A stretch of DNA of 64,000 nt from Rhodospirillales bacterium (GTDB lineage Bacteria > Pseudomonadota > Alphaproteobacteria > Rhodospirillales > Shumkoniaceae), in contig JACZKS010000147.1 of the NCBI GenBank assembly GCA_014859895.1, forward strand, positions 68,642-132,641, read 5' to 3'. The notes under the pieces were generated by a model. The model made no database searches, was not told the DNA's origin, and was given only the letters and a program-made list of their open reading frames with translations. This document shows positions 41,892-60,878 of this stretch, in pieces. The position numbers and the translations under genes are program-made. Within the stretch, counting starts at the first letter, position 1. Each line of letters opens with the position of its first letter.

Positions 41892-41929
41892 TCCTCACTC
41901 TTACCTTGCAAGGTATACCTTTTACGGTT

Positions 41930-42495: not shown

Positions 42496-42509
42496 TGGCG
42501 GAGGGGGTG
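42496..42509 (+). repeat. Distal att site: 14-bp copy of the tRNA-Ser 3' end (TGGCGGAGGGGGTG)
   Basis: Exact match to 60789-60802. Confidence 0.9.
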
Positions 42510-42598
42510 TCCGCCGTACATATGATTTCCTATGTCCATGCCTATCCACTAACGTTTAGCTAACGATTGGAATTTCAAGCACAATTTCCCGTTAGCGT

Positions 42599-42628
42599 TT
42601 GCCCCCATCCGTAGCCGTGTGCTACAAT
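42599..42628 (+). promoter_or_regulatory. Putative sigma70 promoter of integrase 1
   Basis: TTGCCC-18 nt-TACAAT with an extended -10 TG. Confidence 0.4.
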
Positions 42629-42664
42629 CCACGCTCCATTTGTGGGTTTCTTAGTGGGTAGAAA

Positions 42665-43900
42665 ATGGGTCGGCAAATTTCAAAATTGTCTGCTTTAGCG
42701 GTATTGAGGGAGAAAAAGCCGGGCCTATACTCGGACGGTGGAGGGCTCTACCTGCAGGTGTCGGACGCCGGCGCGAAATCGTGGATCTTCCGATTTATGC
42801 TCGACGGCCGGGCTCGGCAGATGGGCCTCGGCTCGCTACGTGCCGTTTCCCTTTCCCAGGCCAGGGACAAGGCTAGGGACGCTCTGAACCTGTGTAGCGA
42901 TGGCGTCGATCCAATCGACCATCGCAAAGCCACCCGCGCCAGTGCCCGATTCGAGGCAGCAAAGGCGATCACCTTCAAGAAGGCGGCAACCGATTACATC
43001 GCTGCCCACAAGACGGGATGGAGCAACGAGAAGCATGCGGCACAGTGGACCGCCACGCTTGAGAGCTACGTCTACCCGATCTTTGGCGACACTTCCGTTC
43101 ACGAGGTAGACGTCGCTCTGGTCATGAAGGTGTTGGAACCAATCTGGGCCAAGAAGCCAGAAACAGCCACGCGGGTGCGGGGCAGGATCGAATCCGTCCT
43201 CGATTGGGCAACCGCACGCGGCTACCGCAGGGGCGAAAACCCCGCCCGTTGGCGTGGCCATCTCTCAAACCTTCTGCCCAAGCGGTCGCGAGTCCAGACG
43301 GTAAAGCACCATCCGGCGCTGCCTTATGCCGACATCGGCGGGTTCATGGCGGATCTTCGCGCCCAAGGGGGCATAGCGGCCAGTGCGCTGCAGTTTCTGA
43401 TCCTAACGGCTGCCAGGACGGGTGAAGTGATTGGAGCTCGCTGCGCGGAAATTGGCGATACCGTCTGGACCGTCCCAGCTGATCGCACCAAGACGAAGAC
43501 GGAGCATCGGGTGCCACTTTCCGCGCGCGCATTGGAAATCCTCGCCGAGATGAAGATGCTGGGCGCAGGCCGGTACAATTTCGCGTTCCCCGGGGCCAGG
43601 AAGGGAAAGCACCTATCCAACATGGCGATGCTGAAGCTCTTGCGGCGCATGGGGCGTGATGATCTGACCGTACACGGCTTCCGATCGACCTTCAGGGATT
43701 GGGCAGCCGAGATGACGGGTTACCCGCGCGAAGTTGCGGAGATGGCGCTGGGCCACGCCGTCGGAGACAAGGTCGAGGCCGCTTATCGCCGCGGCGACCT
43801 GTTCAAGAAGCGGCGCCGGCTCATGGATGATTGGGCTCGGTACTGCGGCGCCGTGAAGGCGTCCGGTAAGGTCGTGCCGATGCGGGCCAAGGCCGGTTGA
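42665..43900 (+). CDS. P4/CP4-type tyrosine integrase (integrase 1)
   Basis: Arm-binding N-domain (DGGGLYLQVS...KSW, MGLGS); catalytic R (ARTGE), HGFR, LGH and Y (AAYRRG) intact. Confidence 0.95.
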   Translation: MGRQISKLSALAVLREKKPGLYSDGGGLYLQVSDAGAKSWIFRFMLDGRARQMGLGSLRAVSLSQARDKARDALNLCSDGVDPIDHRKATRASARFEAAKAITFKKAATDYIAAHKTGWSNEKHAAQWTATLESYVYPIFGDTSVHEVDVALVMKVLEPIWAKKPETATRVRGRIESVLDWATARGYRRGENPARWRGHLSNLLPKRSRVQTVKHHPALPYADIGGFMADLRAQGGIAASALQFLILTAARTGEVIGARCAEIGDTVWTVPADRTKTKTEHRVPLSARALEILAEMKMLGAGRYNFAFPGARKGKHLSNMAMLKLLRRMGRDDLTVHGFRSTFRDWAAEMTGYPREVAEMALGHAVGDKVEAAYRRGDLFKKRRRLMDDWARYCGAVKASGKVVPMRAKAG

Positions 43901-43988
43901 TGGTTCGACGGGGATAGGGTCGCTCCCGACAAGGCCGGTACCGCACCGGCTTTCCCCGTCGATTTTATGCGGCGTGTCAAGCGGAGGC

Positions 43989-44315
43989 ATGATGTTCATT
44001 CTGGATGGTTACTGTAGTTTCAAGGATGCCATCGACAGGCTTGGGCGGGCCAAATTTCCGAACGAGTGGACGGGAGAGGAGTTCGATGCCGAACTGTTGC
44101 CCATCCCCTCCGAACGGGCAGGGCGGCTCGAGAGGGAGTTGGACGAGCTCTGCGGGCCATCGGAGAGGAGCCCCCATAGGTCCGGATCTAGATTGCTCTG
44201 CCCTAAAACACGGGCCGAGCTTTGGGCCGAACACAGCGTTCCGAAATACAAGGCTCAGCCTGTGGAGGGTCCCAACATCATCGAGCATTTCCCGAAGCCG
44301 GCCATGGGCGCCTAG
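43989..44315 (+). CDS. Hypothetical protein
   Basis: GGAGG RBS before ATG 43989; sits between the integrase and the next gene. Confidence 0.55.
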   Translation: MMFILDGYCSFKDAIDRLGRAKFPNEWTGEEFDAELLPIPSERAGRLERELDELCGPSERSPHRSGSRLLCPKTRAELWAEHSVPKYKAQPVEGPNIIEHFPKPAMGA

Positions 44316-44317
44316 CC

Positions 44318-44899
44318 ATGGTCAAGGGCGGAGAAAAGGCCAGTGAGCTGCATGCGAAGCTTCTGGACGAGATGGGGGTCGACGCCGGCCCTGAGACCCT
44401 TCAACGTGACTTGGACGCGGCCCGGGAGTTCTACTTGAAGGAAGGTGCCCGGTGGCACGCCTTCACGGCGTTGAAGCTTGTGGCCAATCAGATCCTTCAG
44501 CAATCGCCGGATCCAGCAGGCGATTTTGACGGCGTGCCACCGGAGACGCCGGTTTCTGTTCCTTGGTGGGCGGTTCGTGCGGCCTACCTAGCTTGGATGA
44601 CATGGGAGAATGGGGAGTGTGGTCGAGCAGACAAGATTTCGCTCGGTCAAGCGTTTGGGGTCGAACGCATGGGCCAAGGTCAACGTTCAAGCTGGGAAGA
44701 ATCGGAAAAGAACGAGCGGCAAATGCGGATCGCGACTTTGGTTGCCGAGAAAATTGGCTGCGGTTCGCGCCCAATGCCCATTGATTATGCGCTGGATTTC
44801 GTTGCGATAGACCTTGATGTTGAGAAATCGATGGTGCGGGAGGCGTGGCGGGAGTTTGGCGGACGGGCCTTGGAGGCCCTAAGACGGGCTGGAAGATAA
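44318..44899 (+). CDS. Hypothetical protein, possible C-terminal HTH
   Basis: ATG 2 nt after the previous stop; IDYALDFVAIDLDVEKSMVREAW resembles an HTH. Confidence 0.6.
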   Translation: MVKGGEKASELHAKLLDEMGVDAGPETLQRDLDAAREFYLKEGARWHAFTALKLVANQILQQSPDPAGDFDGVPPETPVSVPWWAVRAAYLAWMTWENGECGRADKISLGQAFGVERMGQGQRSSWEESEKNERQMRIATLVAEKIGCGSRPMPIDYALDFVAIDLDVEKSMVREAWREFGGRALEALRRAGR

Positions 44900-45014
44900 A
44901 CCCGTTTAAAACCCAGAGCCTCTTGCGTGCAATTCCCAAACGCACGTGAATAATAACGGTCGCCTTATTCGAGGCGGCCAATTGGGGTCGCCTCAGAGTG
45001 CAGGAGACCCCAGA

Positions 45015-45242
45015 ATGTTCAAAACAAACTTAGCGCGTCAGGACGAGCCTGTAATCGATGGGCTTGCTGATCGCATCCTCGCGCCCATCCCAACCGCAGC
45101 CAGAGCACTCGGTATCGGCCGGACGCGCATGTACCAGATCATCGATGCCGGCAACGTCGAAAGCGTCAAGCTCGGCAAGCGCCACCTGGTCGTCGTGGAA
45201 TCGCTCCACGCATATGCGGATCGCCTGCGCGCCAAGGCCTAA
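45015..45242 (+). CDS. Excisionase/AlpA-like HTH DNA-binding protein
   Basis: IPTAARALGIGRTRMYQIIDAGNVESVKLGKRHLV. Confidence 0.88.
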   Translation: MFKTNLARQDEPVIDGLADRILAPIPTAARALGIGRTRMYQIIDAGNVESVKLGKRHLVVVESLHAYADRLRAKA

Positions 45243-45346
45243 GGCTGACCATCACCGTCGCCGTCGCCCAGGGCGTCGGTAACAGCATCACCTTCATTAT
45301 CACCTGCTTCGCGCTGCCCCACCCCTTACCTGACGGAGATTGCACC

Positions 45347-46411
45347 ATGGCCACCAACACCCTCGACCCCCGCAAGAGTTTCACCTCGACTCGGTTCAAG
45401 ACCTCGCGCTTCCCCGGGTTCGTGTCCCAGACCCTGGACACCACCGGCAACGTCGAGGAGGAGCCGGCCGCGGTCGCGTCCCCGCTACGTGGCGTCGGGC
45501 TTGGCCTTTCCACCGAGAGCGACGGGCCCGGTACCGATCCGGTTGGGAAGCAGTACACCGACATGAACCGTGACGAGATCGACAGGGAATATGAGAACCG
45601 CGCCCTCAATCAGGCCATGTTCGGGATCGGCATGCCGACGAACGCGGAGGAGCTGGGAAAGAAGGCTGTCGGGGTCTTGGCGAGTGCAACTCCTGTCGGC
45701 GCGATCGGTCCTTTGTCCAGGGGCCTTGATTATTTCACGAAGGAAGAACTGGACCGTGCCGAGCAGGCACTGTCGAAGCAAGAACTGAAGCGCGCCGCAG
45801 GAATTGCGGGAACACCGAATGCGGACAGGGACTTTGACCCCAGCGACATGACCGGTCTCGGCGTGACGGATTACGACAGGGCCGCCATCGAAGGTGATCC
45901 CACCGCGCGAGGCTACAACACGCCGCAACCCGACTACAGCGGTTCCGACGAAGCCGGCCCCAGTGTCGGGGACCCCAACGCGGGCACAACCACCGACACC
46001 GACGACAGCGGCCGTGGTGCCCAGGGTCCCAGCGAGGCCGATAGCGGTGGCACCTCGGCGAACTCCGACAACAGCCATGGCGGCAGCTCGGAGGGCCATG
46101 GCGGAGACCCGTCGACCTACCGCATGGGAGGCCCGATCCCCAACAGGGGTTCGCCAGAGATCGAACCGGTCCGCATCACCGCTCACGAAACCGAGCACGT
46201 CATGAACCCGGAGACGGTGCAGTTCTGGGGCCAGGACGTACTGGACGCCATGGGGGCCGTTGCCGAAGGCGTCGCCACGCCCGAGCAGGTCCAGCTCCTG
46301 CGCCAGATGATCAATCGGGGCCCCGCGGAATCGATATTGGAGGATCGGCCCAACCCGATGCAGGCCATGGGCTCGCCCCTGCGCGCCGCCGGGCGCGGCT
46401 ATCTCCAATAA
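45347..46411 (+). CDS. Acidic low-complexity protein with a tape-measure C-terminal-like motif
   Basis: GGAG RBS; D/S/G/T-rich linker followed by YRMGG...ITAHETEHVMNPETVQFWGQDVLDAM. Confidence 0.65.
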   Translation: MATNTLDPRKSFTSTRFKTSRFPGFVSQTLDTTGNVEEEPAAVASPLRGVGLGLSTESDGPGTDPVGKQYTDMNRDEIDREYENRALNQAMFGIGMPTNAEELGKKAVGVLASATPVGAIGPLSRGLDYFTKEELDRAEQALSKQELKRAAGIAGTPNADRDFDPSDMTGLGVTDYDRAAIEGDPTARGYNTPQPDYSGSDEAGPSVGDPNAGTTTDTDDSGRGAQGPSEADSGGTSANSDNSHGGSSEGHGGDPSTYRMGGPIPNRGSPEIEPVRITAHETEHVMNPETVQFWGQDVLDAMGAVAEGVATPEQVQLLRQMINRGPAESILEDRPNPMQAMGSPLRAAGRGYLQ

Positions 46412-46434
46412 CCACCGGCCGGAGGGTGTGCCCG

Positions 46435-46917
46435 ATGGCGACGACAAATCCGATATCGGAGAACGCTTACCTGCGCCTCTGCGACGGCTGGGCGCTCGGG
46501 TACGACAAAAACCAGTGGATCGTCCTGCGAGCCAAAAAGCGCGGAGATGAGACGTATTGGAACGCTGTGGGCTACATCGCCTCTACCAAGACGTTTCTCT
46601 GCCGTTATCTCCGCGAAAAAGGGGTCCAGATTTCAGACGGGGCTCAACAGGTCATCGACAACATGCCCGAGCGGTTCCTCGATTGGATCGCTGAGGTTCC
46701 GAACGGAGAAACTGTTGTCGATAGCCCCCGGCACCTCGCGGGTGACGCAGACGACGACAGCGACAACTCGCCTTATCCCCGCTCCGCAAAGGAAAGCGCC
46801 GACCGGGTGCAAACCGATCGGCGCCGAAATCTTTTAGCTATTCGCAACTCCCGGCCAGGAGAATCACGATGCGAACTTCTTACACCAAATCGACAACTTC
46901 CGCAACGTCGCCCCTGA
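46435..46917 (+). CDS. Hypothetical protein
   Basis: GGAGG RBS; globular N-terminal part (WALGYDKNQWIV...YWNAVGYIAS). Confidence 0.6.
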   Translation: MATTNPISENAYLRLCDGWALGYDKNQWIVLRAKKRGDETYWNAVGYIASTKTFLCRYLREKGVQISDGAQQVIDNMPERFLDWIAEVPNGETVVDSPRHLAGDADDDSDNSPYPRSAKESADRVQTDRRRNLLAIRNSRPGESRCELLTPNRQLPQRRP

Positions 46918-47144
46918 AGCTCGGCCGCCTGCCAAGCGATTCAAGCGATCCTTTCCACCTTCACGACAAAGCCAAGTTCGCCAAGCGCGCGCTCGAGGCC
47001 CTGAGCAAGTCCGCGTTCGAGGCCGGGGACCCGCAGACGATGCGTGCGGCAGGACAGGGCATTGTGCAGATCAACGAGCTGGCGTTGATGCACGGCTGGT
47101 GGGGCGCGCCCCTTCCTCGCAAGCGGGTACCGCAGGCATCGTGA
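46869..47144 (+). CDS. Hypothetical protein
   Basis: GGAG RBS; stop coupled (TGATG) to the next gene. Confidence 0.55.
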   Translation: MRTSYTKSTTSATSPLKLGRLPSDSSDPFHLHDKAKFAKRALEALSKSAFEAGDPQTMRAAGQGIVQINELALMHGWWGAPLPRKRVPQAS

Positions 47145-47368
47145 TGATCCGCCCCGAAGCCTTGAACGTTCTTCGCCTGCCGGTGACGCCAAAGGGTCGC
47201 CGGTGGCTGCGCGAGGCCGTGGTGCTTCTCCGAGGTTGGACCTTTCCGAACGGCGAACGGATCGAATTCTTCGATTGGGACCGGTTAGCTGAGTGCGGCG
47301 ATCTGGAACAATCCCGATGCCCCCAGGTGGCCGATGAGGCGCCGGCGCTCCAAAGGAGGCGGGGATGA
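47144..47368 (+). CDS. Hypothetical protein
   Basis: TGATG coupling upstream and ATGA coupling downstream. Confidence 0.5.
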   Translation: MIRPEALNVLRLPVTPKGRRWLREAVVLLRGWTFPNGERIEFFDWDRLAECGDLEQSRCPQVADEAPALQRRRG

Positions 47369-48147
47369 CTGGGCTGGCTTGGTTCCCGATGTATCCCCGG
47401 AACTGGCTGGTCGACACCCGCGTCCTTTCCGACCGGGCGCGCGGATTTTATGCGGACATCCTTTGCGCCATCTATGCCCGCGGCGGCCCCCTCCCGTTCA
47501 ACGGGCAAGAGGATGAGGACGAGTTGAGGAAACTCGGCGGCTATAAGCAGGTGCGGACCATGCGCGCTGTTCTGGATGAACTGCTTTCCAAGGAAAAACT
47601 CCATCTGATCAACGGCCATCTCGTGAACAATCGGGCGATGGAAGAACTGGCGATCGCCGCTAGGCACAGGGCCAATGGCGCGAAGGGCGGAAGGCCCCCG
47701 AAAGCGAATGGCGGATTTATTCCGAATAAATTGGATGTCTCGGGGGTTGGAATTGTGGAAAAACAATGGCCTAACCAAAACCCTACACAATCACATACAG
47801 TCTCTAAAGAGACTGCGCCCGGCGCCTATTCCGATGAGGAAAAGATCGAGGCCGACAGTCTCCGCGTCGTCATCTTTTCGACGTGCCGGAAGATCCTGAC
47901 TGAGCGGTACGCGATGGACGACGGAAAAGCCCGCCGCATTCTCGGCGGCCTCCGCAAAGATCATGCGGACGGTGAAATCGTCGACGCCTTCACCCGCTTG
48001 CAGGCCAAGCCCGACATTCAGGATCCAATTCCCTGGCTGAAGGCAGTCTTGAAGGCCGCGAAGCCCAACGGAACCGCCCGCCCGACGGCGCCGGCCATCG
48101 GTACGCCGGAAGCGGAACAGCGGGCTCGGGAGTGGGGGTACCGATGA
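47365..48147 (+). CDS. YdaU/DUF1376 family phage replication initiator
   Basis: WFPMYPRNWLVDTRVLS..ARGFY.DIL..., then NGAKGGRP. Confidence 0.85.
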   Translation: MTGLAWFPMYPRNWLVDTRVLSDRARGFYADILCAIYARGGPLPFNGQEDEDELRKLGGYKQVRTMRAVLDELLSKEKLHLINGHLVNNRAMEELAIAARHRANGAKGGRPPKANGGFIPNKLDVSGVGIVEKQWPNQNPTQSHTVSKETAPGAYSDEEKIEADSLRVVIFSTCRKILTERYAMDDGKARRILGGLRKDHADGEIVDAFTRLQAKPDIQDPIPWLKAVLKAAKPNGTARPTAPAIGTPEAEQRAREWGYR

Positions 48148-49436
48148 ACGACGATACCCACATCCTTGAGCCAATAGCGAAGCTGGTCAACGTCCAGGCC
48201 GAACAGATCGTCATCGGCGGGGTGATGCTGTACCCCCGCGTCTCGAAGCGGTTCACCTATCTCCGTTCCGACGATTTCGCGTTCGCGGGGCATGATCGCA
48301 TCTGGCGGGAAATCGACGCTCTGCGCCGGCAGGGGCAGGAGGCGTCACCAATCAGCCTGGCCCAACGACTGGTGGACGCCGGGGAGCTCGAGGATGTCGG
48401 CGGCGAAAAGTACATTCGCGAGTTGGCCAGCCAGGTTATCCCGAGCAGCTCGGCAGAGGCGGCGGCCGAACTCGTGCGCGATCTTTCCAACCGGCGCCGG
48501 CTGGTGGCCATCGCCGAAGCCGCGGCGCGTGACGCTGGCAATTTCGACCGCAGCGGGGATGAGCTCGTGGCCGCCTTGGTTCGCGATCTCCAGCGGCTCG
48601 CCGGCGACGGCGTGCGGCAGGGGCAATCGAAACGCGAAGTCGCCGAAGCCATCGTCGCCGGCCTCGGGAAAGCGCTGCCGTGTTACTCGACGGGAATTCC
48701 CAGCCTCGATGAAGCGATGGGAGGCGGCCTGTTCGCCGGGAAGCTCTACGGCGTCGCTGCCCGGAAGAAGGTTGGCAAGACGATCCTTCTGGGGAGCATT
48801 TCGCACAACCTCAACGCTGCCGGCGTGCGGCATGCCTTCATCGCCCTGGAAATGTCACCTGCCGAAATCGAGCAACGCAATGCGGCGCGGGCCGGCGGCT
48901 TCAACTCGATCCGCTTTCTCACGCGCGACGATCCGCACCTTGCCGAGCGCGTTGCCCAGTACGCCGTGACCACACCCGACGCGACGATCTACGAAGGCGC
49001 GCCCGGCGCCAGCTTCGAACAGATCCGCGCCATGGTTGCGCGCCACATCGCGGCCCGAGGCATCAAGGGCGTGGTGCTCGACTATTGGCAGCTGGTCGGC
49101 GGGAAGTCGCCGCGGGATTCCGAAGAATGGCACCTCCGTGAAGTTGCCCAATGGATGGCCGATACCGCGCGCCGCGAGGGCGTGTTCTTCTTGACGGCCG
49201 CGCAGGTTAACCAGACGGGGAACACCCGCGGCGGCGAAGGCCTGAAGCTCGCGTGTGACCAGTATTTCACGCTGCACCGCGAGAAGGAGGACAAGGGTGC
49301 ATGGCTCGAAATGGAGGAGAGCCGGCATACCATGTATCAGAACGTGGGGAACGCCGCGGCACCCGGCCTCTGGCTTGACCCTCACGGCCCGCACTTCCGG
49401 GATCCGGATCGAGCAAAAGCCGGAAGAGCGGCATAG
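48144..49436 (+). CDS. DnaB-like replicative helicase
   Basis: AEQIVIGGVM N-domain, ARKKVGKT Walker A, LEMS, VVLDYWQL Walker B and AAQVN; ATGA-coupled to DUF1376. Confidence 0.9.
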   Translation: MNDDTHILEPIAKLVNVQAEQIVIGGVMLYPRVSKRFTYLRSDDFAFAGHDRIWREIDALRRQGQEASPISLAQRLVDAGELEDVGGEKYIRELASQVIPSSSAEAAAELVRDLSNRRRLVAIAEAAARDAGNFDRSGDELVAALVRDLQRLAGDGVRQGQSKREVAEAIVAGLGKALPCYSTGIPSLDEAMGGGLFAGKLYGVAARKKVGKTILLGSISHNLNAAGVRHAFIALEMSPAEIEQRNAARAGGFNSIRFLTRDDPHLAERVAQYAVTTPDATIYEGAPGASFEQIRAMVARHIAARGIKGVVLDYWQLVGGKSPRDSEEWHLREVAQWMADTARREGVFFLTAAQVNQTGNTRGGEGLKLACDQYFTLHREKEDKGAWLEMEESRHTMYQNVGNAAAPGLWLDPHGPHFRDPDRAKAGRAA

Positions 49437-49437
49437 C

Positions 49438-49974
49438 ATGAAAGCCCTGGCCCTCGATATCAGCAGCAAGACGGGTTGGGCGTCTAGCGAGGGTCGGTCC
49501 GGCGTTCTGGACCTGTCCGGCCATCTTGATGACTTTGGTAAGCTGGGCTTCAATTTCCGCATGGACCTGGTCGACCTCTTCCGAGATACGACGCCCGACG
49601 TCGTTGTGATCGAAAGGCCCTTTGCGGCCGGAAAATCCGACCTCGCCAGACTGCCGGCCCATCTTGTATTCGTCGCGCATGAAACCGCCTTCGGCTGGAG
49701 AATTGCCCGCGCGGAAGTAACACCGGGGCAATGGAGAAAGGCAATTCTCGGCAATGGCGGGATGAAGCGCACCGAAGCGAAGAAGGCCGCCCTGGCATGG
49801 TGCCGCAGTCGGGGCTTATCCCCGCGTGACGACAACGAGGCCGACGCCCTGGCAATCCTGGCGTGGTGGGAACGGTTCGGCTGCGGACCGATCACGGGCC
49901 CAAGACGTGCGGAACGGGACGCCCTGGATACCGGAACAGCGGCCCGGCGCGGCGTAGATCTCGGCGCCGCATAG
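49438..49974 (+). CDS. RuvC-like Holliday junction resolvase (phage type)
   Basis: LALDISSKTGWA, VVIERPF and DDNEADALAIL acidic catalytic motifs. Confidence 0.85.
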   Translation: MKALALDISSKTGWASSEGRSGVLDLSGHLDDFGKLGFNFRMDLVDLFRDTTPDVVVIERPFAAGKSDLARLPAHLVFVAHETAFGWRIARAEVTPGQWRKAILGNGGMKRTEAKKAALAWCRSRGLSPRDDNEADALAILAWWERFGCGPITGPRRAERDALDTGTAARRGVDLGAA

Positions 49975-50159
49975 GGGTGTTCGGCGGGGGCACCGTCGCC
50001 GGGCGCAATCAGGTTCATCCTGGTTTAGTACGGTGGTGGGTCGCGCGCACCAAGATTGGCGGATTTCTGAGGAATATGATCTCCGGCGCGGACCAATCAG
50101 GTTCATAAGGGTTTAGTCTCGCGCATAGGGTTTTCCTTCATATTGCTTTAGTTTCGCGG

Positions 50160-50429
50160 ATGCGCTTCCACTTCAAAAAACTTCAATCCCGAACGGATTT
50201 GAAAGAACCCGCCACGGGCCGATACGAGGCTATCGAAATTGGTTGCCGTTGCGAAGAAATCCTGGAGAATTTGGACGAGGTAAGTGTTCGGATGTGGATC
50301 GCCTACCACGACGTCGACGGCGCGGAAATAAGGGGCGATGACCGTAAGGCCGTGGCACGCCTGCAACGAGGGAGTGAGAAACTCGAGAAGCTTGCCGGAG
50401 GATTTCCCGGCGCAGTTCGCGATATCTGA
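50160..50429 (+). CDS. Hypothetical protein
   Basis: 89-aa charged ORF with no recognised motif. Confidence 0.4.
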   Translation: MRFHFKKLQSRTDLKEPATGRYEAIEIGCRCEEILENLDEVSVRMWIAYHDVDGAEIRGDDRKAVARLQRGSEKLEKLAGGFPGAVRDI

Positions 50430-50444
50430 CCGAGGGGTTACAAT

Positions 50445-52728: not shown

Positions 52729-52729
52729 T

Positions 52730-52753
52730 AAAAGGCCCCGCGCGAGGCGGGGC
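52730..52753 (-). terminator. Rho-independent terminator for the Tat-signal gene
   Basis: GCCCCGC-GCGAG-GCGGGGC hairpin with an A-run on its left (U-tract on the minus strand). Confidence 0.65.
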
Positions 52754-52786
52754 AGGAAGAAAAGATTTTGTCGTTAACCTTTGCGG

Positions 52787-53500
52787 TCAGGCGGCCGCGG
52801 CGTCTGACGGATACGGCGTGCGGGCCATCCTTTCGCAGTCTATCAGTGCGGACATTAGCGCCGCATCGTCCATGCTCTTGCACTCGCCCTTCAGGTAGCT
52901 GGCGCGCTGTTCAGGCTCAAAGAGGGTGTTCGTCCCGAGCCGCAGTTTGACCGCGAATCCGGCGGGACCGGCAGCCGGCGTAGCGATGATCTTTCGCAAG
53001 ATCTCCTCAGCCCGGTTTCCGAGGGCGTCGATCCTGCGGGCGAGCTCCACGGCGCGGGGATGCTTTTTGGCGGCGACGCATTCGGCTTCGTATTTGTCGA
53101 ACGCAACCAAGGTCTCTTGGTGTCTGGCCGCGATTTCCTCGGGCGCCCCGGCCCGCCATAGCGTCGGGGCCGTGCCGGTGAAGAACCGGTCGATATCGTG
53201 GCGCGTCGTGAAAGGAGCCCTGGGATCGTCGGGCAAAACCTCCCATCCGGGCTCATAAAAATAGCCCGGCCAGTAAAGGATGTCGGGCCGCTTTGGCATC
53301 GTGATGGCGTCATACTCGTTTTGCACGGTGCACGTTTCTCCCGTCGTGTCCCAATACTCTCGTTCCAGGGCGATCAGCGTGGCGTCCGAGTTCGGCGCGG
53401 CCGCCGCCGGGAATAACGCGCCAGCCGTGACGGCTGCGGCAGCGCTGGCCGCCAGCATGCCGGAGTATTTGAGCGCATCACGACGTGAAATCTTAGACAT
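52787..53500 (-). CDS. Hypothetical protein with twin-arginine-like N-terminus
   Basis: MSKISRRDALK...AAAA; helical body (DATLIALEREY, ATPAAGPAGFAVKLR); AGGAG RBS. Confidence 0.75.
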   Translation of the reverse strand: MSKISRRDALKYSGMLAASAAAAVTAGALFPAAAAPNSDATLIALEREYWDTTGETCTVQNEYDAITMPKRPDILYWPGYFYEPGWEVLPDDPRAPFTTRHDIDRFFTGTAPTLWRAGAPEEIAARHQETLVAFDKYEAECVAAKKHPRAVELARRIDALGNRAEEILRKIIATPAAGPAGFAVKLRLGTNTLFEPEQRASYLKGECKSMDDAALMSALIDCERMARTPYPSDAAAA

Positions 53501-53522
53501 GGAGCTTCTCCTTGCTAGGCTG

Positions 53523-53575
53523 TGATACCTGAAGTATCATATATTCTCAGATCAATTGCAATACCTGAGGTATCA
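53523..53575. promoter_or_regulatory. Two 17-bp palindromic operators (53523-53539, 53559-53575)
   Basis: TGATACCTGAAGTATCA and CAATACCTGAGGTATCA between the divergent Tat-signal and XRE genes. Confidence 0.75.
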
Positions 53576-53577
53576 TT

Positions 53578-53814
53578 TTGATCACAAGCGAACAGGTCAG
53601 GGCCGCCCGGATGCTCCTGCGGTGGGAGCAGAAGGACTTGGCCGGCAAGGCAGGAGTGTCCCTGCCGACGATCAAGAGGCTGGAAACGCAGCCCGGCGAA
53701 TTGCGGGCGCATAGTTCGACGCTCAGCGCCATCACCAGGGCGATCGAAGCCGCCGGCGTCATATTCATCCCCGAAAATGGCGGCGGCCCGGGAGTCAGGT
53801 TGAAAAAGGCCTAA
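53578..53814 (+). CDS. XRE-family HTH transcriptional regulator
   Basis: QVRAARMLLRWEQKDLAGKAGVSLPTIKRLE...EAAGVIFI...GGGPGVRL. Confidence 0.92.
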   Translation: MITSEQVRAARMLLRWEQKDLAGKAGVSLPTIKRLETQPGELRAHSSTLSAITRAIEAAGVIFIPENGGGPGVRLKKA

Positions 53815-53884
53815 ATCCAGGTAGAACCCGGACCCGTTGCGCGGTACTCTTTCTGCGTGCGCTGCCGCGTGGAAAGGGGGATCC

Positions 53885-54811
53885 GTGGTGGACGCCTGGG
53901 GTCTTCGATTCTTCCTGCTCGATGAAAACGACGGGCTTTGGCGCGTGTCGCAGCGCGTCGCTCAAGAGCTGATCACTGGCCGAACTCGCCTCCCCCAATT
54001 TGCGAGCAAACGCGTCCGCGCGGTTGACGCGTATGTCACTCTCGACGCGCGCAAGCCAGTGAGGTTGGAATCGGCTCGCGGGTCATACTGGAATTTCGAC
54101 AAGTCCGGGAGGTGGTTTTTGCCCAGGAGCGCCCGTGGGTTGATCATGGATACGATCGACTTCGCGCCGCCAAAGGAAGGCAACGTCGTCCCGTTGAGCG
54201 AATTCAGCAAGCGGCTGCTCAAATCACGGGAGCGCTGGAAGCTTTCCCCCCACGAAATCACACTGATCGTTCACGCCATCTGGCCAGAGCAGGCTGGGCG
54301 GCCGACCAAGCTACCCCCGTTCATTCAAGGTAACCGAGAGAGGAAGCCGCCGATGACCTACGAAGCCAAGAACGCGCGGAGCGAGTTGTCGGATCACGTC
54401 TTCAAGGCGAGCCTGATTATCGACCGCCTATCTCCGCCATCTCTCAAGGCCTTGGTCGCGGATCTCGACGACCAAGAGCCTGACGACATGCTCGAGCTAT
54501 GGCGGGGCATCGCGGATGCCTGCCGCCGGAAATTGGCGATCGAGCAGGCACGGCGGCGGGACAAAGGGGAATGGCGCGCCGAGGTCGAGGTTATCAGGTG
54601 GGAGGACGGCCGTCACGGGAGGGTAGGCCAGTCGGTCTTCAGCGAGAGCGTCCAGACGACTAGCCGAAAGGCAGCCGTCAAGGCGGGCCGCGAGCTGTTG
54701 AAGAAGCACGCCGACCATTTCGACACAGACTGCACGGTCGAGGTCAACCTCCTCACCGGAATTGAATGGGAGAGGCGCGGCGCGCCGGATAGTACCAGTG
54801 AGACGGAATAG
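53885..54811 (+). CDS. Hypothetical multi-domain protein
   Basis: Long ORF; GTG start re-called after GGGGG; no recognised motif. Confidence 0.6.
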   Translation: MVDAWGLRFFLLDENDGLWRVSQRVAQELITGRTRLPQFASKRVRAVDAYVTLDARKPVRLESARGSYWNFDKSGRWFLPRSARGLIMDTIDFAPPKEGNVVPLSEFSKRLLKSRERWKLSPHEITLIVHAIWPEQAGRPTKLPPFIQGNRERKPPMTYEAKNARSELSDHVFKASLIIDRLSPPSLKALVADLDDQEPDDMLELWRGIADACRRKLAIEQARRRDKGEWRAEVEVIRWEDGRHGRVGQSVFSESVQTTSRKAAVKAGRELLKKHADHFDTDCTVEVNLLTGIEWERRGAPDSTSETE

Positions 54812-54942
54812 TGGCGTAGTGGGGCCGCGCACAGGGCTGTTACCCCCGTCAACGTTCAATCATGGTTATATAATCCGCCTCGACTTTCGCCCTCGAACAG
54901 CGCAATAATTTCCTAAACTAAAAATCGTAATGGGGGGATGTC

Positions 54943-55182
54943 ATGAGACGGATGCGGGTAGTGCTGGCCGTTTTCGTGCTGCTGGGCGCCTTTGTTCCAT
55001 CTGCATCGTCCATCCAAACGCCGCTGCCGCAATCGATTTGCGAACAGATCATTCGGAGCGGTGCGCCGGTAGACGAGATTGCGAAAAGCGGTTGTTGCTC
55101 GTGGCACGGCGGCGTCTGCGGATGCAGGGGCGGGCGGGCAGTCTGTTGCGACGGTGCACTCAGCCCATCGTGCGGCTGCTGA
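54943..55182 (+). CDS. Small secreted Cys-rich protein (GCCSWHGGVCGC type)
   Basis: Signal peptide; KSGCCSWHGGVCGCRGGRAVCCDGALSPSCGC. Confidence 0.8.
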   Translation: MRRMRVVLAVFVLLGAFVPSASSIQTPLPQSICEQIIRSGAPVDEIAKSGCCSWHGGVCGCRGGRAVCCDGALSPSCGC

Positions 55183-55230
55183 GTACAGACCCTAGTTTCC
55201 GATTGTGGGTCACTTTTTGGGGGGGAGAAA

Positions 55231-55548
55231 ATGCGGCTGTTCCTTGCCGCCTTGTGCGGATTGATGCTGGCATCACTCATCAGCGTCAGCCCGGCAACGG
55301 CTCAATCTCGCAATTTGCTCGAAACCACCGAACAGGCACGGCAGCGCCATTCAGCCGAGCGATGGAACCAGTATGAACAGCGCGGCTACCGGGCGCCGCT
55401 TGGGGGTTACCAAGAGCGGCTCGGCGATCCGGCCCCCCGTGGGACCGAACGGCCTGGCTACACGTCACCTCAGCCCTATGGATCTGGAAACAGCAGTCCG
55501 GGGTGGGGTAGCAGCCAGTCACAGGATCGACACTGGGGCACCAGATAG
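55231..55548 (+). CDS. Small secreted protein, Q/G/S/R-rich
   Basis: Signal peptide ending in ATA-Q; GGAGA RBS. Confidence 0.65.
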   Translation: MRLFLAALCGLMLASLISVSPATAQSRNLLETTEQARQRHSAERWNQYEQRGYRAPLGGYQERLGDPAPRGTERPGYTSPQPYGSGNSSPGWGSSQSQDRHWGTR

Positions 55549-55612
55549 CCGCCTTCGGGTCGCGCGCGACGCCTGTACGCGCGGAAGCCTGTTCCAGGGT
55601 GTCGGAGTAGCC

Positions 55613-56302
55613 ATGAGCACCACAACTGCCCAGCGCCTTCTTTTCTGGTCCTTCGTTGCGGCGTGCCTTTGGCCATCATTGTTGCTGGCGCACGGCGGCG
55701 GCCTCGACGCGATGGGCTGCCATCACAACAGGAAGGCTGGCGGCTACCACTGCCACCGCGGCCCGCTGGCCGGTCAGTCGTTCGCGTCCAAGGAAGACGC
55801 CGCCCGTGCCCTGCAGCGAGCCAGCCAGCCGCAACCGTCGGCGCGCTCATCCACACCCCCGCCCCCGGCCGCCACGCCGGCGCCTGCCGTGCTTTCCGGC
55901 GTCGCCTCAGTGATAGACGGCGACACGCTGGAAATCCACGGCCAGCGGATCCGGCTTCACGGCATCGACGCGCCCGAGTCCGCCCAGTTGTGCAAAGACA
56001 CGCGCGGGAAGGATTACCGCTGCGGCCAGCAGGCCGCTCTTGCGCTCGCCGATCGCATCGGCCGCCGGCCGATCGAGTGCGAAAAGCGCGACGTCGACCA
56101 TTACAAGCGGATTGTCGCCGTCTGTCGGCTGGGTTCCGAGGTCCTGAACGCCTGGCTCGTTTCCGAGGGGTGGGCAATGGCCTATCGGCATTACAGTCGT
56201 GAATATGTGCCGCAAGAGACCCAAGCGCGGAAGGTAGGTCGCGGCATTTGGCGAGGGGAGTTTGCACCGCCGTGGGATTGGCGCAATAGAGCCGGCCGTT
56301 GA
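55613..56302 (+). CDS. Secreted thermonuclease (SNase-like) with N-terminal YHYH-like His/Cys domain
   Basis: AHGGGLD..GCHHNRK.GGYHCH, Pro-rich linker, VIDGDTL...RIRLHGIDAPE, DHYKRIVA and GIWRGEF..PWDWR. Confidence 0.9.
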   Translation: MSTTTAQRLLFWSFVAACLWPSLLLAHGGGLDAMGCHHNRKAGGYHCHRGPLAGQSFASKEDAARALQRASQPQPSARSSTPPPPAATPAPAVLSGVASVIDGDTLEIHGQRIRLHGIDAPESAQLCKDTRGKDYRCGQQAALALADRIGRRPIECEKRDVDHYKRIVAVCRLGSEVLNAWLVSEGWAMAYRHYSREYVPQETQARKVGRGIWRGEFAPPWDWRNRAGR

Positions 56303-56389
56303 TTTCCCGAACCCGTTTGGCGCGCCTCTACACAATGAAGGTCGCGCTCCGGGGGGGTGCGATATAGTGAAAATACGCAGTTGACTTAA

Positions 56390-56866
56390 ATGGCAACAGC
56401 CTTACATATTGCGAACCTAGGTGGCCTGATCCGATGGGAACTCGATCCCGTCGACAGGCGACAGGTGGAACGATTGCTGTTTCTTACGCCCGAAATGGAA
56501 CGTTGGATGCGCGACGTCCTACCACTCGAACCTGCTGACCGCGGTCGCGACATATCTCCTATCGAACAGGTCGTGTCTGTATTCGACCAGATAGCCGGCG
56601 ATCCGGCTTTTCGCGGAGTTGGCGATTTCGTCCGGCTGCATCCACAGTATCAGGGCGTCTACGAAGTGAAGGTGACAGACGTCAGGGTCTTCGGGTGGTT
56701 CCCGGCATGCAGGAACTTCATTGCCTGTTCCGGCGAAATGAAGAGGCGAACAAAAGGGAACTTTCGGCTCGTGAGGGAACACGTACGAGCAGCTATCCGT
56801 TGCCGTGAACGTCTGCACTTGGACGAACCGAAATTTGTGATGGGGGCACTACATGAGATCCTATAG
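56390..56866 (+). CDS. Putative RelE/HigB-fold toxin
   Basis: VRLHPQYQGVYEVKVTDVRVFGWF resembles the RelE beta core; overlaps the HTH gene. Confidence 0.6.
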   Translation: MATALHIANLGGLIRWELDPVDRRQVERLLFLTPEMERWMRDVLPLEPADRGRDISPIEQVVSVFDQIAGDPAFRGVGDFVRLHPQYQGVYEVKVTDVRVFGWFPACRNFIACSGEMKRRTKGNFRLVREHVRAAIRCRERLHLDEPKFVMGALHEIL

Positions 56867-57230
56867 GCCGCATATCGACGCTCGCCGCAAGAAGTTCGTC
56901 GATTTGATCGGACGTGTGCATCTCGAAATTGGGAATGCTGTCCACGATTGGACGACGGCGGAGAACGTATCCAAGACGGACCTTGCGCGAATTCTTGGCT
57001 GCAACAAGTCGGTCCTGAGCCGTCGCCTGAACGGCACAGCGAACCTGACACTGAAAACGATCGCCGACTTGGCATGGGCAACTGGACGCGATATCGACTT
57101 CGCTCTTCCCAAGGCGGCCCATCGGAACGTTCCCGTTCAAGCACCTCGCCCAGTTGTAACCCGGGTGAGCGCAACAACAACGACAACCGAGGCGCCGACA
57201 ACGCGGGTGGTTACCCTGGTGCACCGGTGA
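56853..57230 (+). CDS. XRE/HigA-like HTH antitoxin with about 40-aa Thr/Val/Pro-rich C-terminal tail
   Basis: SKTDLARILGCNKSVLSRRLNGTANLTLKTIADLAWA, then PVQAPRPVVTRVSATTTTTEAPTTRVVTLVHR. Confidence 0.85.
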   Translation: MRSYRPHIDARRKKFVDLIGRVHLEIGNAVHDWTTAENVSKTDLARILGCNKSVLSRRLNGTANLTLKTIADLAWATGRDIDFALPKAAHRNVPVQAPRPVVTRVSATTTTTEAPTTRVVTLVHR

Positions 57231-57667
57231 TGTCTGAGCGCTACGCATGGTGCCTTTTTTGCGATGATATCCGAGCAGAGCTCGGAGGAAAGTACTCGCT
57301 GATGGGACTATGGGGCCCCCGGTTCGCCTGCCCGGCCTATCCCTTCACTCTGCCGTCTCTTGGCTTGGCGGTGTATTTTCGCACCGCTCCAGACGAAGAT
57401 ATACGAAGCTTGAAGATATGGCTCGAATCTCCGAGCGATCAAAAAGCTGAATTCCAGGTAAATATGGAGGATGTTCCAGGCGATCTCCCGGAGGAGTTTC
57501 CATCCCGCGTCACCATCCTCCATCTTCGTATGTTCAACTTCGTGATCCAGGCTCCTGGATGGATGAAGGCTTTCGTTGAAGCGGACGGCGAACGCTATTA
57601 TGCCGGTGCCGTTTACTGGATGCGGCAAGAGGCGCCCGGAGAACAGGGAGAGCGGAAGGCATTGTAA
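57230..57667 (+). CDS. DUF6941-like beta-sandwich protein
   Basis: AWCLFCDDIRAELGGKYSLMG N-terminal signature; TGATG-coupled to the HTH gene. Confidence 0.75.
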   Translation: MSERYAWCLFCDDIRAELGGKYSLMGLWGPRFACPAYPFTLPSLGLAVYFRTAPDEDIRSLKIWLESPSDQKAEFQVNMEDVPGDLPEEFPSRVTILHLRMFNFVIQAPGWMKAFVEADGERYYAGAVYWMRQEAPGEQGERKAL

Positions 57668-57696
57668 TCGGCATTCTCTCCCACAGAGTAAAATCT

Positions 57697-58191
57697 ATGT
57701 GTGGTCGACTCAGCCAGAAGCATGCCCAAATGGCCGCCGACAGCCAAGCATGCGAAAATGCCGACAGGCAGCCCAGCGTCTATATCGCCTGCACGCGTGC
57801 CAAGGGCTACCGCCAGGCCAACCATGAAGACGTGGGGCCGGCAGGGGCGTTGGTTTATCGGTGGGTCGATCTTCGTCGCAACAACGCGAAGGCCTATGAC
57901 GATCTCACCGCCTGCCAATCCAGCGCGCCCCAGGAAACCATCGCGCGCACCCTGGCGGTTGAAACCTGCATGACGCAGCGGGGATACCTCCTCTGGACGG
58001 GTGGCGAGGTCGACGATTACGAGCGGCTGGCCGGCGGCGCCCGGGATGTTTACGGCGCCTGCATGATCGACGTCGATAGGAAGCTTCCTCTAAGCCAAGT
58101 CAGGCCGAGCGAACTAGACGGGCGCCGCCAGCTGCGCGACGCTTGCATGTCGGGCCTGGGTTATGCCGGCGGACAGCGGCCGCACCTTTGA
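57697..58191 (+). CDS. Protein with three tandem two-Cys repeats ending in C..xxGY
   Basis: QAC...ACTRAKGY, TAC...TCMTQRGY and GAC...ACMSGLGY. Confidence 0.6.
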   Translation: MCGRLSQKHAQMAADSQACENADRQPSVYIACTRAKGYRQANHEDVGPAGALVYRWVDLRRNNAKAYDDLTACQSSAPQETIARTLAVETCMTQRGYLLWTGGEVDDYERLAGGARDVYGACMIDVDRKLPLSQVRPSELDGRRQLRDACMSGLGYAGGQRPHL

Positions 58192-58209
58192 TACCTATCG
58201 TCGGGGAGG

Positions 58210-58614
58210 ATGCGCATGAGATGGGCAGGCTTGATTGTGCTGGCCGCCGTAATTGCGTGGCCCGCATTGGCCGAAGAGACCGCCGGGCGGAAGGATTACA
58301 CTTCGGTTCGGGGCATGACCGAGTTTGAGGCACTCCCAGGTGGCCACGACCTTATGGCCATCTACTTCCATGCCGTGGACGATGCGCTCGGCTACGGGAA
58401 TTTCTATCTGACGGCACGGGGAGGCGCCCCGTTTTTCTGCCCCCCTGCGAAGTTGGCCCTGAACGCAGGAAATTACAGGAAGATCCTGCTCGACGAGGTG
58501 GCCCGCCTACGAAGGCTCAAACCGGCCAACAAGGAATGGCAGGACAAAATCGACCGCTCGAACATAGGGATGATCTTGGTGGATGCCCTGTATCGGACCT
58601 TTCCATGCAAATAG
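58210..58614 (+). CDS. Secreted Rap1a/Tai4-like immunity protein
   Basis: Signal peptide (ALA-E); FCPP and terminal ALYRTFPCK two-Cys pattern. Confidence 0.6.
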   Translation: MRMRWAGLIVLAAVIAWPALAEETAGRKDYTSVRGMTEFEALPGGHDLMAIYFHAVDDALGYGNFYLTARGGAPFFCPPAKLALNAGNYRKILLDEVARLRRLKPANKEWQDKIDRSNIGMILVDALYRTFPCK

Positions 58615-58690
58615 GGGCCAGGACACCGGATGCTGATCCGCTGACGGCGCCCTCTGTTGCAGCAGGATGGGGCGCCCTATCTTTTCCAGC

Positions 58691-59377
58691 ATGTGCGGGC
58701 GTTTTTCCCAGGTACTGACGTGGCGCGAGTTGCATGCGCTCTACAGCCTGACCGGGCCGGAGCGCAACGTCGTGCCGCGCTACAACATCCGGCCAACGAA
58801 CCAAGTGTGGATCGTGCGCGCCGGGGAAGACGACGGCCGCGAGCTGGCGTCGGCCGTGTGGTGGCTGGTGCCGCCGTGGGCCGACAAGCCGGATCAGCGC
58901 TTCGCCATGTTCAACGCCCGGGCTGAAACCCTGTCGGAGAAAAAGGCATTCGCCGGCCCGTTTCGGTCGCGGCGCTGCCTCATCCCGTTTACCGGCTGGT
59001 ACGAGTGGCGAGCCGAGGGCAAGGCCAAGCAGCCCTATTACCTGGCGCTGCGCTCCGGGCCCTTCGCGGTGGCCGGGCTGTGGGAGATCAGCCTGCGCGC
59101 GGCGGCGCCCATCGTCTCGTGTACCGTCGTCACGGTGCCGGCGAACGACCTAGTGGCGAAGTACCATCCGAAACAGCGCATGCCGGCCATCCTCAAGCCC
59201 GAGGATTGGGGCCCATGGCTCGATACCAAGACGGTCACGCCGGAGTTCGCGGCCAACCTGCTGGCGTCATGGCCGAGCGAGGAGATGACCGTGCACGCCG
59301 TGGATCCGCGCCACGTCAACGCGCCCATCGATACCCCGCTGGCCATCGAGAAGTGGAAGACGCTGCCGGCGCGGTAG
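58691..59377 (+). CDS. SOS response-associated peptidase (SRAP/YedK/HMCES family)
   Basis: MCGRF N-terminus, RYNIRPT, FNARAET, RRCLIPFTGWYEW and HPKQRMPAIL. Confidence 0.93.
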   Translation: MCGRFSQVLTWRELHALYSLTGPERNVVPRYNIRPTNQVWIVRAGEDDGRELASAVWWLVPPWADKPDQRFAMFNARAETLSEKKAFAGPFRSRRCLIPFTGWYEWRAEGKAKQPYYLALRSGPFAVAGLWEISLRAAAPIVSCTVVTVPANDLVAKYHPKQRMPAILKPEDWGPWLDTKTVTPEFAANLLASWPSEEMTVHAVDPRHVNAPIDTPLAIEKWKTLPAR

Positions 59378-59385
59378 ACTGAACT

Positions 59386-60639
59386 TCACATGATCCGCGG
59401 CGGGCCATCGCCCGGGTTGCTCTCTGCCGTTGCGCAATAGCTTGCCCAGTCATTCATCAAGCAACTGCGCTTCTCGTACAACTTGCCGCGCTGGTATGCC
59501 CTCTTGACCTTGTCGGGAATAGTGTGGCCCAGGGCCATTTCTGACACTTCCTCAGGGTATTTCGTACATTCCGTGGCCCAAGTCTTTAGGGTGGCTCGAA
59601 AGCCATGATCCGTGATATCGGCGTACCCAAGGGTGTCGAGCAATTTCAGGAGATTCGACGACGATATCCGCTCGTTTCGACTCCCTTGCGAAAAGACAAG
59701 CCGATCCCCGGAATCGGCCATTCCGATTTCATCCCTTACATCAACGACGTCAAGAATATCGATCGCGCCGTCGGAGAGCGGCACCAGGTGTTCAACCTTC
59801 GACTTCGTGCGTTCCGCGGGGATCGTCCACATTTTCTTGTCGAGATCTATTTCCTTCCAGGTAGCCAGCGTCACTTCGCTGGCACGCACACCGGTCAAAA
59901 GCTGGAATTCAAGCGCCAGCCCAACGACGCTTGGCTCCAATCGCAGCGCAACCAACAACGGTCCGACGCTGTCATAGTGAAGGGCCGGGTGATGCTTGGT
60001 CTTTTTGATCTTCGTGGGAGCCCGCAGGACGGAGGCAAGATGCTTTTCCCACGCGGCCGGGTTGCTTCTGTCTTTGAGATCGTTGGTCGCATATGCGTAG
60101 GCCAATATGGATTCGATCCGACCCCGCAGGCGATGGGCCGTCACCGGAATGGTGGACCAGATCGGACGGAGGCATTTCAGGACGTGCCCGGTCCTAATTT
60201 CGTCGACGCTCATATCCCCGAGCACAGGATAGGCGTACGTTTCCAGTGTGCTCTCCCACTGTGCGGCATGCTTGTCGTTTGCCCAGTCGGCCTTGTGATC
60301 CACGATATAGGCCGCCGCCCATTGCCGAAACGGCTTATTCTTTTCCTCCTCCTCCGCAGTTTCCCGATCGGTGCTTTCGCGCGCCTCGATCGGGTCGATT
60401 CCCCTGCGGACAAGCCTTTCGCAATCTTTCGCTTTCTCGCGGGCGTCATCCAGAGAATATCCCTTTAGCGATCCGAGCCCCATTTCCCGCGCCTTGCGGT
60501 GCAGCATGAAACGGTAAATCCACGATTTCGTGCCAAAGGCGCTGACTTGGAGCCACAAGCCTCCACCATCTCCATATTTGCCCCGACGATCGACGGTGGC
60601 GACGAATCGGTCCGACAACTTATGAATGCAGCGTGCCAT
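59386..60639 (-). CDS. P4/CP4-type tyrosine integrase (integrase 2)
   Basis: DGGGLWLQVS...KSW and MGLGS; catalytic R (VRASE), HGFR, LGH and Y (RAYQRG) intact. Start re-called at MARCIHKL. Confidence 0.95.
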   Translation of the reverse strand: MARCIHKLSDRFVATVDRRGKYGDGGGLWLQVSAFGTKSWIYRFMLHRKAREMGLGSLKGYSLDDAREKAKDCERLVRRGIDPIEARESTDRETAEEEEKNKPFRQWAAAYIVDHKADWANDKHAAQWESTLETYAYPVLGDMSVDEIRTGHVLKCLRPIWSTIPVTAHRLRGRIESILAYAYATNDLKDRSNPAAWEKHLASVLRAPTKIKKTKHHPALHYDSVGPLLVALRLEPSVVGLALEFQLLTGVRASEVTLATWKEIDLDKKMWTIPAERTKSKVEHLVPLSDGAIDILDVVDVRDEIGMADSGDRLVFSQGSRNERISSSNLLKLLDTLGYADITDHGFRATLKTWATECTKYPEEVSEMALGHTIPDKVKRAYQRGKLYEKRSCLMNDWASYCATAESNPGDGPPRIM

Positions 60640-60788
60640 AGAAAAAGCCCTCCTGTTGGGAAAATTGCCCACGCACAGGTCGGAATTTCCAACGCAGGAT
60701 TACCGCGCTTCGGTTTGTAGGCTGGTTTGTGGGCTAAAGAATATTGTATTTTATAATGCGTTGAAAATAAACGCTTTTATAAAATAGT

Positions 60789-60878
60789 TGGCGGAGGGGG
60801 TGGGATTCGAACCCACGGTACCCGCAAGGGTACAACGGTTTTCGAGACCGTCCCAATCGACCACTCTGGCACCCCTCC
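60789..60878 (-). tRNA. tRNA-Ser(CGA), 90 nt, encoded CCA
   Basis: GGAGGGGTGCCAGAGTGGTCGATTGGGACGGTCTCGAAAACCGTTGTACCCTTGCGGGTACCGTGGGTTCGAATCCCACCCCCTCCGCCA: long variable arm, GTTCGAAT T-loop. Confidence 0.97.

Follow-up and report, generated by a model that had tools for sequence, protein, structure and literature searches.

The element at the tRNA-Ser(CGA) gene

The stretch of DNA analysed here (the window; 64,000 nucleotides (nt) of contig JACZKS010000147.1 from a Rhodospirillales bacterium, to which all coordinates refer) contains a tRNA-Ser(CGA) gene whose last 14 nt recur at the far end of an 18.3-kb region. Just inside the two ends of this region (42496-60802) lie two integrase genes that face inward, int1 starting at 42665 on the plus strand and int2 starting at 60639 on the minus strand, as had been described in an earlier note on this DNA. 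From sequence comparison with related loci we consider it likely that one integrative element makes up 42496-60802, that it has integrated into the 3' end of tRNA-Ser(CGA), and that it possesses a conserved attachment site (attP) to which two integrases belong. The features that bear on this reading are:

42496-42516, plus strand: attR core, in which the displaced 3' end of tRNA-Ser occupies the first 14 nt (as reverse complement) and TCCGCCG is the C' arm of the element
42517-42664, plus strand: P' arm and int1 promoter region, with TACAAT at 42623-42628 and, abutting the int1 ATG, the repeats ATTTGTGGGT (42638-47) and CTTAGTGGGTAG (42650-61)
42665-43900, plus strand: int1, 411 amino acids (aa), a canonical P4-type tyrosine integrase
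59386-60639, minus strand: int2, 417 aa, a divergent paralogous integrase whose transcription leads away from the P arm and runs parallel to that of the tRNA
60640-60788, plus strand: P arm, with the repeats GGTTTGTAGGCT (60712-23) and GGTTTGTGGGCT (60724-35) and, between these and the tRNA, an AT-rich spacer of 53 nt
60789-60878, minus strand: tRNA-Ser(CGA); its last 14 nt (60789-60802), which the element regenerates, are the attL core

The 14-mer TGGCGGAGGGGGTG is present in exactly two copies in the window, both on one strand (42496-42509 and 60789-60802), the right-hand copy being the 3' end of the tRNA gene, beyond which rplU, rpmA and obg follow; no third copy is found in the window at up to two mismatches. 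A length of 14 nt is short for an attachment site (att) repeat, and shuffled sequences yield approximately 1.2 matches to the 14-mer if two mismatches are allowed, both of which would fit a chance match of the distal copy in a region that is not a bounded element. This explanation is effectively refuted: an exact copy appeared in 0 of 100 dinucleotide-preserving shuffles, the distal copy lies at a family-typical distance from int1 and within a family-typical palindrome, and the congener G002 lacks everything between the distal 14-mer and the tRNA gene. The pair of repeats described in the earlier note is thus borne out, and the locus combines an intact tRNA gene and a displaced copy of its 3' end with an empty site in a congener, although the flank of the empty site in G002 differs owing to an extra remnant at 36053-42495 in the window.

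The earlier note had reported no exact internal copy of the att sequence, and a search that was both exact and fuzzy (up to four mismatches) likewise gave nothing convincing inside the element, only isolated 7-mers; nor did an arm-repeat scan reveal paired arm-type repeats inside 42517-60639. An att copy between two units, as in a tandem array, is therefore not seen. Alternatively, the region might have arisen from two tandem tRNA-Ser islands, an int1 element with its integrase at the tRNA-distal end and an int2 element with its integrase next to the tRNA, which became accidentally fused when the att shared by them was deleted in this lineage. A dip in GC content and an intergenic repeat region at approximately 50000-50150 could mark a former junction of this kind, but neither a relic att nor paired arm repeats are left inside the element, and taking into account the layout of related elements described below we judge a fusion of tandem islands to be unlikely. 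The motif TGGCGGA at 50057 was considered as a relic junction and rejected, as the match extends over 7 nt only and is not accompanied by arm repeats.

The attachment site

The distal end of the element, 42496-42516, is a 21-bp palindrome with a 7-7-7 structure (TGGCGGA-GGGGGTG-TCCGCCG), in which the inverted arms TGGCGGA and TCCGCC flank the asymmetric overlap GGGGGTG. The structure TGGCGGAGnGGnnG-TCCGyy was found 130-215 nt upstream of many int1 homologues in other genomes. Between this core and the P'-arm repeats lie approximately 125 nt, and most of the family members inspected have tandem repeats of the type xTGTGGGTAG immediately before the integrase ATG. In many of them a conserved (C)TACAATCC box is located about 10 nt upstream of these repeats, which in the window corresponds to 42623-42628; this box probably serves as the -10 element of an int promoter under autoregulation.

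The P-arm repeats at the opposite end of the element have the same orientation as those preceding int1, and the repeats of both sides (42638-61 and 60712-35) match TT(T/A)GT(G/A)GG(T/C). Together, the two ends assemble one attP that consists of arm repeats, an AT-rich spacer of about 52 nt, the core, approximately 125 nt, arm repeats and int1, with int2 placed divergently beside the P arm; the distance from ATG to ATG across the reconstructed attP is 321 nt. The start codon assigned to int2 is an ATG with a GGAGGG ribosome-binding site, while a GTG at 60672 is also open. The P-arm repeats fall within the promoter region of int2, and once the element is integrated int2 directly follows the tRNA gene, downstream of it and in the same direction.

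Single-integrase relatives

Our survey of the tRNA-Ser integrase family, with more than 7000 relatives at E<=1e-50, revealed two classes of loci. In class S the integrase follows an intact tRNA-Ser on the same strand at a distance of about 150 nt, whereas in class I it is found at the tRNA-far end, facing inward, behind the palindrome. Where both ends are visible, the two classes use the same arms, that is two repeats, a spacer of about 50 nt, the core, approximately 125 nt, and two repeats abutting the integrase ATG. They differ solely in how the asymmetric 7-bp overlap is oriented between the inverted arms TGGCGGA and TCCGCCA. Among loci L002-L010 and L043-L136 either overlap orientation was seen, with the integrase next to the tRNA or far from it accordingly. 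In the integrase tree both classes are interspersed, for example in the sister pair L123/L127.

Single-integrase class I elements of 5.7-10.3 kb are represented by G040:C22, G026:C3, L100, L109, L067 and L123. The earlier note had implied that it is unusual for an integrase to lie at the tRNA-distal end and face inward; this part has to be given up, because the same polarity is common among the single-integrase relatives in this family, and position and orientation of int1 are thus normal. An inversion, considered as an explanation for the position of int1, was rejected for the same reason. In all class I elements with known ends (6 of 6), the tRNA-proximal arm repeats are located 50-85 nt from the tRNA and are followed by AT-rich DNA; they are oriented like those before the integrase, and the layout at 60712-60788 in the window matches this arrangement.

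These relatives bear on the fusion of tandem islands in both directions. On the one hand, tandem arrays do exist at tRNA-Ser genes, where same-strand integrase pairs 8-18 kb apart were found in two related genomes (G303 and G310), and several tRNA-Ser genes are occupied in the congener G001. On the other hand, all class S integrases (14 of 14) are preceded by approximately 125 nt and direct repeats right before the ATG, and int2 differs from this layout, showing instead the P-arm layout of elements with a distal integrase. In addition, if a class S element and a class I element stood in tandem, the P arm of the latter would come to lie in the interior, beside the middle att that was subsequently lost; here, the P arm abuts the tRNA, which argues against a tandem origin.

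Related elements with two integrases

Among 5.8 billion proteins the best match of int2 is P0004 (54% identical), encoded on contig NPIG01000254.1 of a metagenome-assembled genome within a 20.8-kb unit, termed E2 here (loci L151, L154 and L155). E2 contains, in this order, an orthologue of int1 (67%), an HTH_17 gene at a position equivalent to that in the window element, the genes of a DnaB-like helicase and an SNase-domain protein, and the orthologue of int2; its integrases face inward as in the window, and its attP spans 322 nt from ATG to ATG. In contrast to the window element, E2 is sited outside any tRNA gene. Its int2-side end reads ...AT-rich-TGGCGGATGGGGTG|accgatg and its int1-side end gacgagcagGTG|TCCGCCtaac..., with GTG preceding TCCGCC, and the core is split between the two ends. 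When the flanks are joined with one overlap removed, they form a single open frame, a DUF2336-like gene. The split core and the continuous frame of the flanks point to one recombination event between a secondary site and a circle with the complete attP TGGCGGA-TGGGGTG-TCCGCC, which indicates that E2 moved as one unit. The int2-side junction of E2 recurs in two further assemblies (L152 and L159).

A second relative of int2, P0005 (52% identical), is located on a 10.2-kb contig (L156) with the same int2-side layout as in the window and with a non-tRNA flank. The cargo of this contig is syntenic with the right half of the window element (SRAP peptidase 76%, SNase-domain protein 48%, 324-aa protein 57%). 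The presence of right-half cargo together with an int2-type gene, on a contig where the other end is not visible, could be taken as support for a fusion of two islands. However, E2 shows the same layout with orthologous integrase pairs, an attP of nearly identical length (321 and 322 nt) and insertion as one unit at a non-tRNA site, all of which speaks against such an accident. Taking together the layouts seen with E2 and P0005, the two-integrase arrangement appears to be an inherited architecture that moves as a unit. Of the two readings offered in the earlier note, the one of a composite element is therefore retained, with the specification that there is a single attP whose architecture is shared by E2, while the one of two fused elements with a lost junction is less favoured. 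We think it probable that int2 belongs to the attP architecture and is not a leftover of a neighbouring island, as far as can be judged from these comparisons. The P arm was also considered as proof that the site is owned by int1 only; this was softened, as the int2 relatives show the same layout.

Divergent genes of the int1 and int2 types around one core, with about 320 nt from ATG to ATG and with arm repeats that, on the int2 side, are inverted and separated from the core by 52-55 nt, are thus present in the window and in E2, and on the int2 side also in L156. P0004 and P0005 were the only int2 relatives with this layout in 300 genomes of the order, genome contigs, the 5.8 billion proteins and metagenome contigs, and no other inward-facing pair was detected in 47 genomes carrying class I relatives. 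Two of the three int2-type elements (E2 and L156) reside in non-tRNA sites, and their core carries the 3' end of tRNA-Ser(TGA); the non-tRNA sites may hint at a relaxed target choice.

The second integrase

Both integrases show the architecture of P4-type integrases, with Arm-DNA-bind_3, Phage_int_M and Phage_integrase domains all above the curated cut-offs. They are 46% identical to each other and share the segment KHAAQW, and both keep R, K, HxxR, H and Y, in agreement with the full catalytic sets (R/HxxR/H/Y) listed in the earlier note. In int1 the respective residues are R251, a lysine in TKTK276-279, H337/R340, H364 and Y374; those of int2 (R252, K279, H345/R348, H372 and Y382) are invariant across the int2 clade. 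In a quick maximum-likelihood tree, int1 and the left-hand integrase of E2 are sisters (SH-aLRT, the Shimodaira-Hasegawa-like approximate likelihood ratio test, 91), and int2, P0004 and P0005 constitute one clade with 100% support on a long branch.

Alternatively, int2 might be regarded as a non-functional or decaying passenger of one element, without a part in its mobility. Of 122 positions with a conservation of 90% or more among 88 canonical relatives, int1 has kept 121 and the range for int1 and its E2 counterpart is 118-121, whereas the int2-type proteins have kept only 98-106 and have lost 16-24. Between the same two elements int2 has diverged faster than int1 (54% versus 67% identity), and single-integrase relatives manage with an integrase of the int1 type alone. 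However, the three int2-type proteins are of full length and have open frames, catalytic residues and the arm-binding motif in lineages that are only 52-54% identical to each other, and a dead gene would not be expected to stay open over such a distance; furthermore, position and spacing are retained, as is the GGAGGG ribosome-binding site. We therefore hold a mere passenger to be unlikely.

While int1 is presumed to be the cognate integrase, the features of int2 lead us to infer a conserved, specialised or relaxed second recombinase, for which the roles of a backup, a partner, a regulator or an enzyme for alternative sites are candidates. That either integrase could excise the unit, as the earlier note suggested, is conjecture; int2 belongs to a divergent clade. 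It is conceivable, though doubtful, that the two proteins form a designed pair acting at one palindromic core, either as an obligate hetero-complex of the XerC/XerD kind or with divided labour (integration and excision, or tRNA and secondary sites). If this were true, integrative elements with two recombinases would constitute a small class that had gone unrecognised.

Several observations weigh against a conserved site with two integrases. The 16-24 of 122 positions lost in the int2 types could reflect decay rather than function. The P-arm and P'-arm repeats of the window (..GGCT versus ..GGGT) are less alike than in single-integrase relatives. For E2, a homologue search did not retrieve an intact homologue of the interrupted DUF2336-like gene, and the Pfam match to DUF2336 in the flank ends at the junction. 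Despite large searches the dual-integrase members number three, two complete and one partial, which makes them rare, and an old fusion of two elements is possible as the origin of the architecture.

Other genes of the element

Between the two integrase genes of the element, small open reading frames (ORFs) follow int1 and precede a gene for an AlpA-like protein. The remaining recognizable genes belong to a replication and recombination module and to a right-hand cargo:

44946-45242, plus strand: AlpA/excisionase-like protein with an HTH_17 helix-turn-helix (HTH) domain (E 2e-4, which does not reach the curated cut-off; the actual start codon probably lies inside the ORF)
47365-49974, plus strand: replication/recombination module with a DUF1376 primosomal-like gene (47365-48147), a DnaB-like helicase gene (48132-49436) and a RuvC-like resolvase gene (49255-49974)
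53578-59377, plus strand, first part of the right-hand cargo: XRE HTH protein, 324-aa protein (53837-54811), 148-aa protein and SNase-domain protein (55373-56302)
within 53578-59377, plus strand, second part of the right-hand cargo: small ORF, XRE HTH protein, DUF6941 protein, two unknown ORFs and SRAP peptidase (58667-59377)

Among the ORFs scanned there were no domains of relaxases, coupling proteins or type IV secretion systems, as they characterize integrative conjugative or mobilizable elements, and no capsid or tail genes were recognised among the ORFs of the element. Pfam and PHROGs searches, in which many ORFs remained without matches, also did not recognise genes for helper-dependent packaging or for redirecting capsids. 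Clear defence genes were not detected; PADLOC gave only a weak match to the SNase-domain protein. In its gene content, the element resembles small replicative integrative elements and may be a satellite.

These components suggest the following course of events. Int1, together with the AlpA-like protein, would recombine attL with attR and thereby release an 18.3-kb circle, in which the integrase genes would be divergent, with attP in the 321 nt between them; the junction of the circle would read ...AAAATAGT-TGGCGGAGGGGGTG-TCCGCCGTAC.... The circle might then replicate by means of the DUF1376, DnaB-like and RuvC-like proteins and reintegrate at tRNA-Ser(CGA) or, rarely, at secondary sites. Int2 would be the conserved, faster-evolving second recombinase of this attP architecture.

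Between the replication module and the right-hand cargo, a low-GC intergenic region includes 24-nt direct repeats, CAATCAGGTTCAT..GGTTTAGT, at 50006-50029 and 50094-50117 (88 nt apart), with the isolated TGGCGGA at 50057. These repeats, which are not an att relic, could be an operator or an origin.

Comparison with known systems

The element has much in common with P4-type (DUF4102/Arm-DNA-bind_3) islands (P4/leuX, CP4-57/ssrA, KplE1/IntS; PMC2951348), namely a three-domain integrase with the residues R-K-HxxR-H-Y, a regenerated tRNA 3' end as target, arm-type repeats within the promoter of int, pointing to autoregulation, and a nearby gene for an AlpA/Xis-like HTH protein. In contrast to these islands, which have one integrase by attP, two paralogues flank attP divergently in the window element, and the region upstream of int2 is the P arm and not the P' arm. 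An arrangement of a tRNA followed by an integrase is common (Panis et al. 2010, PMC2951348), and integrated int2 has this shape. Tandem and composite tRNA islands (Islander, PMC4383910; Shewanella CGI48, PMC8978831) likewise enclose two or more integrases within their outermost att copies and have older remnants piled up alongside (here 36053-42495). However, tandem arrays have an att between their units and an own set of arms for each integrase, whereas the window element has no internal att and one set of arms and, unlike tandem arrays, an orthologous dual-integrase relative that moved as a unit.

The gene order int, alpA-like gene and primosomal/DnaB-like module, the small size, and the fact that no capsid, tail, relaxase or type IV secretion genes were detected resemble phage satellites (P4-like elements and those similar to phage-inducible chromosomal islands), but a second integrase is not a satellite feature, and no genes for the exploitation of a helper were recognised. 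Paired tyrosine recombinases acting at one site are known from XerC/XerD at dif and from TnpA/TnpB of Tn554. With these the element shares two paralogous tyrosine recombinases that are encoded together and a single site with inverted half-sites; it differs from them in that the arms of its core are identical inverted repeats and that single-integrase relatives use the same type of attP. Literature searches turned up composite islands, and phages that carry two integrases, but no account of paralogues placed divergently on either side of one attP.

Tools for island mapping read several integrases within one att pair as unresolved tandem arrays; the present case, in which two integrases probably belong to one attP of conserved architecture, indicates that such calls are not always artefacts. 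The two integrase genes and the 321-nt attP represent a tractable system for asking why an element keeps a second, fast-evolving recombinase. Moreover, the orientation of the overlap sets whether the integrase is adjacent to the tRNA or far from it, which is relevant to the prediction of island ends and to the choice of integrases as engineering tools.

The adjoining remnant and other occupied tRNA-Ser genes

Synteny between G002 and the window extends to 36052, and the following 24.7 kb of the window (36053-60788) are absent from G002; before the same tRNA-Ser, that genome carries a gene resembling bile-acid/sodium symporters as well as a small reverse gene, approximately 1.1 kb in total. The 14-mer pair thus does not delimit all strain-specific DNA, as the earlier note had implied, since a further 6.4 kb (36053-42495) is also absent from the congener. 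This comparison indicates that the core at 42496 separates the dual-integrase element from an older remnant that has lost its distal end:

36053-42495, no strand assigned: older island remnant outside the element, without an integrase and with unknown ORFs, which replaced about 1.1 kb of ancestral DNA
41354-41891, minus strand: Gp49/HigB-like ORF and HTH_37 ORF with an overlap of 8 nt, a probable toxin-antitoxin pair
41962-42297, within the older remnant: C-terminal fragment of a recombinase

A 46-nt relic of the symporter-like gene, which is intact in G002, is present at 36007-36052 and marks the deletion or replacement. The last 410 bp of the remnant recur elsewhere in G002 (contig G002:C6), beside an att fragment derived from tRNA-Ser and an unrelated integrase.

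In G001 the same tRNA-Ser(CGA) gene holds a class S relative, which identifies this site as a hot spot. On three contigs of this genome (C132, C120 and C59; loci L017, L032 and L033), int1-like class S integrases (approximately 62% identical) are located next to tRNA-Ser genes with the anticodons CGA, GGA and GCT, and two of these contigs break within the repeated integrase.

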